This document shows, piece after piece, positions 60,218-60,889 of a DNA stretch of 64,000 bases. The first letter of the stretch is position 1. Every line of letters begins with the position of its first letter. The notes beneath the pieces were generated by a model, which was not told the origin of the DNA, searched no databases, and worked only from the letters and a program-made list of their open reading frames with translations. The translations under genes and the position numbers were made by a program. The DNA comes from Escherichia phage WPEC4, in sequence record PV682947.1. One strand, written 5' to 3'.

Positions 60218-60889
60218 CTATTTAATGTTAAGTCTGGCACACAAACGAGAAACAGTTTTAGCATCCCATTTACCACCACGTGCTGTTGCTATTTTCTTAC
60301 TATTGAATTTTTCAGCAATAGTTTTGTAAGGTGTATTTAAATCTCTAAGGATCTCCAAACGTTCACGAAATGTCTCTGCAAAAGCGTCGGCTTTAACAGA
60401 GTTGTATTCCATTTTTCCTTTTCTACGTGCAGCGGCAGTTTTAGGATTAGCACTGCCTAATAAAACACCTTTGCTTTTTGCTACAGCAAGACCCTTTTTA
60501 ATACGATCAGCAATACCTCTAACTTCTTGTTCAGCCAGAACAGATAGAAGCTGTATAACCATTTTATCTGCGTCTGGCATGATGGCTATCTTAACATCGA
60601 TCATCTCCAGAAGAGTTGCTACAGAGGCGTTGTTACGACCCAAGCGGTCAACTTTAGCTACCAATAAAGTTGCTCCGGTAGCTTTACACATTTCAACCGC
60701 TTTGACCAGTTCCTTACGTTGCTTCCAATCGCCCTTACCCGAATAGTATTCAGAAAATTGACCAATAACTTCAGCATCAGGCACAGAGTCTAAGAAGTAA
60801 CGGATATCGTTCTCTTGGCTCTCCATACCATATTGTGCCTCACCTTTTTTCTGTTTAGAAAGACGACTGTAAACAACAAACTTTTTCAT
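60218..60889 (-). CDS. small serine recombinase (resolvase/DNA-invertase family)
   Basis: N-terminal VYSRLSKQ...ESQ (catalytic Ser region), LLVAKVDRLGRN, C-terminal HTH; about 220 aa. Confidence 0.7.
   Translation of the reverse strand: MKKFVVYSRLSKQKKGEAQYGMESQENDIRYFLDSVPDAEVIGQFSEYYSGKGDWKQRKELVKAVEMCKATGATLLVAKVDRLGRNNASVATLLEMIDVKIAIMPDADKMVIQLLSVLAEQEVRGIADRIKKGLAVAKSKGVLLGSANPKTAAARRKGKMEYNSVKADAFAETFRERLEILRDLNTPYKTIAEKFNSKKIATARGGKWDAKTVSRLCARLNIK

Follow-up and report, generated by a model that had tools for sequence, protein, structure and literature searches.

A locus of Escherichia phage WPEC4 (sequence record PV682947.1) raises the question of what a small serine recombinase does in a genome that otherwise looks lytic, and on which DNA it might act. 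The 64,000-nucleotide (nt) stretch analyzed here, hereafter called the window, contains an open reading frame (ORF) at 60218 to 60889 that the initial annotation had described as a small serine recombinase of the invertase/resolvase type, possibly rearranging a 6.6-kb region with segments in both orientations. The ORF was confirmed at that position as coding for a protein of 223 amino acids (aa) that matches Pfam family PF00239, and it almost certainly encodes a small serine recombinase whose active site is intact.

The recombinase and its gene

The predicted protein matched PF00239 (Resolvase, N-terminal domain) over residues 5 to 142 (score, 66 bits; cut-off, 23.3; E = 5e-18), as did all 48 homologues in the alignment used for conservation (32 to 81% identity), and it matched PHROG 125 (annotated as DNA invertase; E = 2.6e-32). 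Residues Y7, R9, S11, Q25, R58, D81, R82, and R85 were invariant across these homologues, and E120 and E122 were nearly invariant; the invariant set represents the active-site residues of serine recombinases (including the equivalents of gamma-delta R8, S10, D67, R68, and R71). Both motifs to which the initial annotation had pointed were present: YSRLSKQ, which contains the catalytic S11, and VAKVDRLGRN at residues 76 to 85. A search of 5.8 billion protein sequences returned 93 relatives, nearly all of 213 to 258 aa and many from contigs of 135 to 170 kb.

The AlphaFold2 model was confident (mean predicted local distance difference test [pLDDT] score, 89.4) and comprised the domains listed in Table 1. 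Compared to PDB structures with Foldseek, the catalytic domain was most similar to Sin, gamma-delta, and TP901-1, and the full-length model was most similar to the large serine integrases Bxb1 and SPbeta-type. Sequence relatives in the PDB were limited to Tn3 and gamma-delta resolvase, Sin, and, marginally, Gin, over the catalytic part only; the best of these matches had E values of 3e-6 to 2e-4, and the alignment to Tn3/gamma-delta resolvase included the DRLGR motif.

HTH_7, the helix-turn-helix (HTH) family of resolvases and invertases, was matched by none of the 48 family members. Weak matches to PF07508 (Recombinase) were found in 24 of the 48 and matches to PF20552 (recombinase-like HTH) in 2; in the WPEC4 protein, the PF07508 match reached 18.2 bits, below the cut-off of 21.1, and covered profile positions 19 to 48 of 102. 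Searched with a profile built from the last 85 residues, the PDB yielded a single natural match, residues 203 to 244 of the SPbeta integrase SprA/YokA, and no Hin, Gin, or resolvase chain at E values of up to 10; designed helical repeats outscored SprA in this search and were judged spurious. No zinc ribbon, coiled coil, or further domain was found in the model or in the domain searches. Scores for curated NCBIfam equivalogs all fell below the cut-offs (YneB, 32.5 against 175 bits; XisF, 27.4 against 375; Mpi, 22.6 against 272; CcrB, 17.5 against 900). In sequence and in the predicted fold, the C-terminal domain resembles the first HTH-like part of the recombinase domain of large integrases, to which it appears to be related. 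The C-terminal HTH described earlier was thus rightly recognized as a helical DNA-binding domain and is not of the HTH_7 type. Likewise, the label of invertase/resolvase type suits the catalytic domain, and the DNA-binding domain is of the large-serine-recombinase kind. The earlier remark that the protein is too small for a large serine integrase stands.

The C-terminal module (window 60221 to 60478, minus strand) was also observed elsewhere. At E values of up to 0.001, its profile matched 16,294 cluster representatives, and many of these proteins hold 2 to 9 copies within 150 to 3,000 aa (proteins P0094 to P0239), sometimes after an N-terminus of recombinase length (for example, P0094, with 683 aa and 7 copies). 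These tandem arrays are perhaps a family of separate interest.

An in-frame GTG codon lies 2 codons 5' of the ATG of the recombinase gene. The ATG was assigned as the start because the GTG overlaps the AGGAG ribosome-binding site and because homologues all start with MKKF or MKF (here, MKKFVVYSRLS); the AGGAG was kept in an alignment of four Phapecoctavirus copies. The candidate promoter in the window (Table 1) suggests early transcription by the host RNA polymerase; in phi92, phiWec181, and two Klebsiella phages, the orthologous gene is likewise directly preceded by a TTGACA/TTGACT promoter-like site. The gene is part of a long series of small minus-strand early genes with no assigned function and is ~60 kb away from the tail-fiber genes. 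None of the neighboring small ORFs had a known function, and no partner gene (accessory or directionality factor) was common to the Phapecoctavirus and phi92/Klebsiella lineages.

Escherichia phages WPEC1, WPEC2, and WPEC6, from hospital wastewater in Thailand, had the same sequence as window positions 59000 to 62500 (100% identity), and about 60 Phapecoctavirus genomes, among them phAPEC8, ESCO13, and ABPW7, were 97 to 99.9% identical to it. Members of this genus (subfamily Stephanstirmvirinae) are virulent myoviruses of 148 to 152 kb, with three WPEC records of 155 to 161 kb. The gene was found by tblastn in 161 of 50,697 phage records. Amino acid identity was at least 99.6% in 62 Phapecoctavirus records, about 74% in phiWec181 and phiWec188, 57% in phi92 (gp053) and other Justusliebigvirus members, 51 to 55% in Klebsiella phages of Stephanstirmvirinae (51 to 57% with phi92 included), 35 to 38% in Vibrio and Shewanella myoviruses of 125 to 140 kb, and 30% in a few ICP1 isolates. 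The 16 nucleotide differences from the gene of phage Ro121lw were all synonymous, leaving the protein unchanged. The gene, with its own promoter, was present in every Stephanstirmvirinae lineage examined; it is conserved in this subfamily and, judging from these substitutions and identities, is under strong purifying selection.

The impression of a lytic genome held: the window is Phapecoctavirus, and megablast of positions 59000 to 62500 against 5,426 complete Escherichia coli genomes returned zero matches, i.e., no integrated copies. This result bears on the possibility that the enzyme is the integrase of a cryptically temperate phage, which is suggested by a DNA-binding domain akin to that of large serine integrases. 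Its length of 223 aa, the missing zinc ribbon and coiled coil, the empty search of E. coli genomes, the failure of the authors describing phage SKA64 to find prophage matches (PMC10282059), and the description of all isolates as virulent make an integrase extremely improbable.

In a more distant relative, a 258-aa homologue (43% identical) was observed in an integrated prophage (L007, positions 1 to 9200 of a contig from Logan ERR14228542), between a baseplate-domain gene and a gene for a 448-aa large serine recombinase, so that both sizes of enzyme occur in one element. Four small ORFs 5 kb away are flanked by an inverted pair of 29 nt, which contains CTGAAATA...TATTTCAG dyads. The pair was considered as a hint of a recombination site and was rejected as not transferable to the phage.

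Public records already list and name the gene, and its detection here is not new. Existing names include resolvase (ESCO13), serine recombinase (Ro121c4YLVW), recombinase family protein (SKA64 ORF101), and, for phi92 gp053, [quoted passage not shown] The paper on the ESCO phages passes over the gene (PMC10269720).

The 6.6-kb mosaic and the assembly of the window

The 6.6-kb region containing segments in both orientations is present at 38936 to 45580, as first described, and is an assembly artifact. Its pieces were assigned to 12 module families that form 6 native flank pairs, namely, the left and right flanks of ABPW7 positions 709, 26941, 33790, 111116, and 142306, plus one terminator-promoter repeat. 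Five of the six flanked positions coincide exactly with ends of the blocks into which the window divides when compared to ABPW7. All two-module units were native contiguous pairs, and the remainder were single flanks; therefore, no junction between sites need be real. Copies of a module varied at 2 or 3 single-nucleotide polymorphism (SNP) positions alone, within 7 nt at the center, and no common motif was found at module ends.

Unit lengths were modeled with a de Bruijn graph of k = 77, in which a long edge begins at the last divergence vertex and ends at the first merge vertex. In this model, long edges measure 152 nt at a Y-T-Y-Y cluster, 149 nt where the SNPs of a cluster are 6 nt apart, and 154 to 155 nt at a two-position cluster. 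The graph was simulated for two of the six sites. With the seven observed haplotypes, the B/C site produced 7 edges of 152 to 154 nt and 10 edges of 78 to 79 nt, equal to the content of the window (7 pairs, 5 single B modules, and 5 single C modules), and the E/F site produced 3 long and 2 short edges, again matching observation. On this comparison of sequences, the mosaic can with near certainty be read as unresolved k = 77 assembly-graph edges concatenated with contigs in the record. A k of 77 is the usual maximum of SPAdes with 150-nt reads, and SPAdes may have been the assembler used. Modules occur in both orientations because the strand on which an assembler writes out an edge is arbitrary.

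No record covered as much as 80% of window positions 37500 to 47000; relatives matched 16 to 18% of this segment, and the sixty-odd relatives with the same recombinase (62 near-identical records) lacked the mosaic. Debris of the same kind was found in sister records from the same laboratory: in WPEC6, partly at the same sites and partly at others, and in WPEC2, as mosaic pieces at still other coordinates. The module analysis, the k = 77 simulation, and the absence of the mosaic from relatives that carry the recombinase argue against the recombinase-driven rearrangement that had been suggested for this region. A shufflon was rejected for the same region, its modules being break-point flanks in native pairs with no shared crossover repeat.

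The window as a whole aligned to ABPW7 as four blocks (Table 1) in nonnative order and orientation, with joins at ~940/941, 1172/1173, 8018/8019, 38935/38936, and 45580/45581. As read from this alignment, the joins are contig ends set side by side, and the window, in contrast to about 60 colinear relatives, is no naturally contiguous stretch of genome; analyses of gene order or skew that cross the joins would mislead.

Several further observations were made on this record and its relatives. WPEC records are 155 to 161 kb long, exceeding the genome by 5 to 10 kb, and in WPEC6 (PV763039; 142400 to 155327), and likewise in WPEC1 and WPEC2, dozens of "hypothetical proteins" of 30 to 60 aa are annotated over the debris. 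Records of this type, with 5 to 10 kb of concatenated debris and misordered contigs, can mimic shufflons or repeat arrays, and automatic annotation turns the debris into dozens of spurious proteins. Variable module centers lie, for example, at ~1092 to 1098, 39326 to 39330, and 41806 to 41812. Many haplotypes coexist at these break-point SNP clusters (7 of 8 possible at aaaatYTYYgtc), and three of the six sites recur in WPEC6. Two clusters seemingly turn a start codon into ACG or ATA (the ORF at ABPW7 26942 and a TelA-like gene at 111116), and one appears to change a ribosome-binding site (ABPW7 ~709). Selection within a mixed phage stock could have produced the clusters, as could systematic sequencing error where coverage is very high. 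Within the third block, positions 21350 to 21894 (0.5 kb) and 30268 to 31798 (1.5 kb) had no megablast match to ABPW7 and are probably variable accessory genes.

TABLE 1 Features of the recombinase, its gene, and the assembly of the window (window positions unless residues are given)
Feature	Position	Strand	Basis or remark
Serine recombinase coding sequence, 223 aa	60218..60889	-	ORF list; stop codon 60218-60220
Ribosome-binding site AGGAG, 5 nt 5' of ATG	60895..60899	-	Direct sequence reading
Candidate sigma-70-type promoter, TTGACA-17 nt-TAAAGT	60919..60947	-	Top consensus match of region, 10/12
Imperfect 26-bp dyad, AATAAATACCTTGACAAGTGTTTATT (gene strand)	60932..60957		9/12 arm positions; over -35 hexamer
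Alpha/beta catalytic domain	Residues 1-105		AlphaFold2 model
Long helix E	Residues 109-139		AlphaFold2 model, pLDDT about 90; superposes on Sin and gamma-delta structures
Compact helical DNA-binding domain (predicted)	Residues 149-219		AlphaFold2 model
First block, ABPW7 1-706	235..940		
Second small debris patch (modules F, E+F), between two contigs	941..1172		ABPW7 map, module occurrences; outside recombinase system
Second block, ABPW7 26942-33787	1173..8018		
Third block, ABPW7 111119-142281	8019..38912		
Mosaic, ~87 consecutive ~77-nt pieces	38936..45580		77.3-nt periodicity; outside recombinase system
Fourth block, ABPW7 26942 back to 8529	45580..64000		Contains recombinase

Recombination sites and possible roles

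A clean relative, ABPW7 (148.6 kb), was completed from four pieces. The search for inverted repeats of the hix/gix type that the initial annotation had proposed was run on ABPW7 and on window positions 45700 to 64000 and returned terminators and chance matches only. In the self-comparison of ABPW7, the longest separated inverted pairs were 22-nt terminators, and the others (16 to 17 nt) were at about the level of chance; in the window segment, no inverted pair rose above background. A genome-wide scan of ABPW7 for 28-bp dyads (13-nt arms and a 2-nt center) produced six matches, compared to 1 to 3 in shuffled sequences, and none was convincing: three were terminators, one was AT-rich low-complexity sequence, one lay in the terminase gene, and one lay within the recombinase gene itself (ABPW7 12128), where it results from Lys-Ala...Ala-Phe codons; the corresponding dyad of the window is weaker.

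These scans bear on the possibility that the enzyme is a DNA invertase, flipping one or more phage segments as a host-range switch or operating the 6.6-kb mosaic as a shufflon. PHROG 125 and several GenBank records name the protein a DNA invertase, and oppositely oriented segments are present in the window. These segments are assembly debris, however; inverted pairs in ABPW7 reach 22 nt at most, and those of 22 nt are terminators; the tail-fiber genes are ~60 kb distant; and the C-terminal domain differs from the HTH_7 of Hin and Gin, the match to Gin reaching an E value of only 0.006. An invertase is very improbable on this evidence.

A multisubsite res region beside the recombinase gene was also sought, and none was found in the upstream intergenic space of the window or of the relatives. 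That space is 10 to 106 nt long and is therefore too short for a Tn3-type res. A res-like site adjoining the recombinase, named beforehand as an indication of dimer resolution in place of rearrangement, was thus absent from the 70 nt upstream of the gene here.

The genome ends were examined as a further potential location. Phage BME3 has 342-bp direct terminal repeats (PMC12210895). The region of this repeat was homologous to ABPW7 147.5 kb to 0.3 kb and to window positions ~237 to 529, and no site of recombinase type could be assigned within it. The start of the window was also observed to be homologous to the ~3-kb noncoding region that holds the BME3 repeat (L017/L018), and the genome terminus is probably at or just before the window start. 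ABPW7 147500 to 148647 and 1 to 380 contain the 19-nt palindrome GCTTGCAATAATTGCAAGC and motifs like TGATAATTATCA. A site inside coding sequence or with weak symmetry may escape scans of these kinds.

Homologues outside phages were informative with regard to function. Full-length homologues (35 to 40% identity over 97 to 99% of the protein, with the C-terminal domain included) were found on plasmids of 5.7 to 7.3 kb from Klebsiella, Synechococcus, Marinovum, and Phaeobacter, the other recognizable genes of which were limited to rep and par. A lone serine recombinase on a small plasmid is expected to be a multimer-resolution enzyme. On Klebsiella plasmid NZ_CP118334 (L021; 4264 to 4356), a 34-bp near-perfect palindrome, TATCATTTGTTTGCCG-AA-CGGCAAATTTATGATA, lies 34 nt 5' of the recombinase gene and is preceded by several short TGATTTTTA-type dyads. 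From its sequence and position, this palindrome is a plausible res-like crossover site for the recombinase family.

Because of these plasmid homologues, a resolvase-type reaction was favored for the phage enzyme. By this analogy, a resolvase-like role on phage DNA is proposed tentatively, with somewhat less than even confidence. A dimer of the recombinase would bind a simple dyad site somewhere in the phage DNA, and recombination would take place between two directly repeated copies of that site, with formation of a tetramer, double-strand breaks with 2-nt overhangs, and subunit rotation. The two copies could be brought together in replicating multimers or through the terminal redundancy of infecting DNA, and the products would be unit-length circles, making the enzyme resolvase- or cyclase-like rather than an invertase or integrase. 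The authors describing SKA64 speculated that the recombinase keeps concatemers as single genomes (PMC10282059).

Several results weigh against the resolvase-like role. No recombination site was identified in the phage by the sequence scans. The 26-bp dyad over the -35 hexamer was considered as an operator or site and is a weak candidate operator at most and probably due to chance: dyads as good occurred 16 times in 18.3 kb, compared to 11 in shuffled sequences, and the dyad is not kept in phiWec181, phi92, or the Klebsiella phages. The upstream space is short (70 nt here and 10 to 106 nt in relatives). Monomer circles would be of no obvious use to phages that package from concatemers, and the function of the plasmid homologues is itself deduced by analogy. 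Neighboring genes differ between genera, and in the ICP1 isolate examined, the homologue lies within an isolate-specific block beside accessory genes. The recombinase gene of phage Schickermooser (MK373788) has six deletions (1, 1, 7, 1, 2, and 7 nt). These three observations would suit a dispensable accessory gene equally. Lastly, in the literature on Phapecoctavirus, phi92, and ICP1, no functional study of this recombinase family was found.

The Schickermooser copy bears on the possibility that the gene is a dispensable selfish or decaying remnant of a mobile ancestor that has lost its partner site and contributes little to lytic growth. Its deletions, all frame-breaking, fall within ~200 nt of the catalytic half (L020 1530 to 1730, corresponding to window positions 60560 to 60760), and the annotated gene covers the C-terminal 128 codons alone; the copy could be a genuine pseudogene carried by a viable phage, or the sequence could be locally poor. 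The scatter of homologues over differing contexts and the lack of a detected site would also suit a dispensable gene. The clustering of the indels within 200 nt of a gene that is otherwise ~99% identical looks like a local sequence-quality problem, however, and the catalytic residues stay unchanged in homologues as distant as 32% identity, all substitutions relative to Ro121lw are synonymous, and the Stephanstirmvirinae lineages examined have all kept the gene together with a promoter of its own. A dispensable remnant is accordingly improbable.

Alternatively, the enzyme could be an accessory weapon or counterdefense factor that rearranges or excises nonphage DNA early in infection, with the host chromosome, a resident prophage or satellite, a plasmid, or a coinfecting phage as potential targets. 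The early host-type promoter, the place of the gene among small early genes of unassigned function, its variable position and neighbors between genera, the accessory setting of the ICP1 homologue, the distant homologues carried by a prophage and by a satellite-like element, and the failure to find a phage-borne site are all consistent with such a role. Near-perfect conservation across phages from many hosts is difficult to reconcile with a target specific to a host strain, and neither a candidate target nor homology to a known antidefense family was identified (PADLOC was outside the search). A weapon or counterdefense function is considered unlikely, though less so than a dispensable remnant.

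The resolvase-like role can be extended to a broader proposal, in which the family, with its unusual combination of a resolvase-type catalytic domain and just the initial HTH-like stretch of the integrase recombinase domain, would represent a third build of serine recombinase, present in small plasmids and in an entire subfamily of strictly virulent 150-kb myoviruses and having a dedicated job in the lytic cycle of the phages. Possible jobs would be cyclizing the infecting genome or monomerizing replication intermediates at a simple site within or close to the short terminal repeats, comparable to Cre-lox of P1. This extension is rather doubtful.

Phage therapy screens that reject genomes with a "recombinase" may flag this whole virulent group, and the function of the enzyme, once known, would decide whether that concern is justified. 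As things stand, the importance of the locus is minor, the gene being already rightly named and the rearrangement being an artifact.

Comparison with known systems

The enzyme belongs to the serine recombinase superfamily and does not have the defining features of Hin/Gin, of Tn3-type resolvases (site and DNA-binding domain), or of large integrases. It shares with Hin, Gin, and Cin (of Salmonella, Mu, and P1, respectively) the character of a small phage-borne serine recombinase and the PHROG label. It differs from them in its DNA-binding domain, in the lack of a detected hix/gix-like pair or invertible segment, and in its weak scores against Gin (E = 0.006) and the Mpi invertase model (22.6 bits against 272).

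With Tn3/gamma-delta resolvase and Sin, the phage enzyme shares the catalytic domain, helix E, the R-S...D-R-x-x-R active site, a similar size, and, in the proposed reaction, deletion between direct repeats. Unlike them, it has no HTH_7 and no adjoining three-subsite res was found, and identity in the catalytic part is about 20 to 25%.

Among large serine recombinases (Bxb1, SPbeta SprA, A118/TP901-1, and phiC31), Bxb1 is the best full-length structural match, SprA 203 to 244 is the sole natural PDB match of the C-terminal part, and PF07508 and PF20552 are matched weakly. These proteins are about 400 to 700 aa long, whereas the phage enzyme is less than half as long, corresponds to the first ~30 of 102 PF07508 positions, and has no zinc ribbon, coiled coil, attP/attB logic, or integrated copies (5,426 genomes).

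The recombinase family proteins of small plasmids (Klebsiella pIIIF7SW-P1_2, 5.8 kb; Marinovum pMaD11, 5.8 kb; and Synechococcus plasmids of 6.4 kb) share the architecture of the phage enzyme, including the C-terminal domain, at 35 to 40% identity, and differ in having about 650 bp of noncoding DNA upstream of the gene, compared to 70 nt in the phage. The closest counterparts are phi92 gp053 and the Phapecoctavirus and Justusliebigvirus orthologues, which belong to the same family and have the same size, domain order, and upstream promoter; Phapecoctavirus copies are 100% identical to the WPEC4 protein and phi92 gp053 is 57% identical, with no substantive difference among them.

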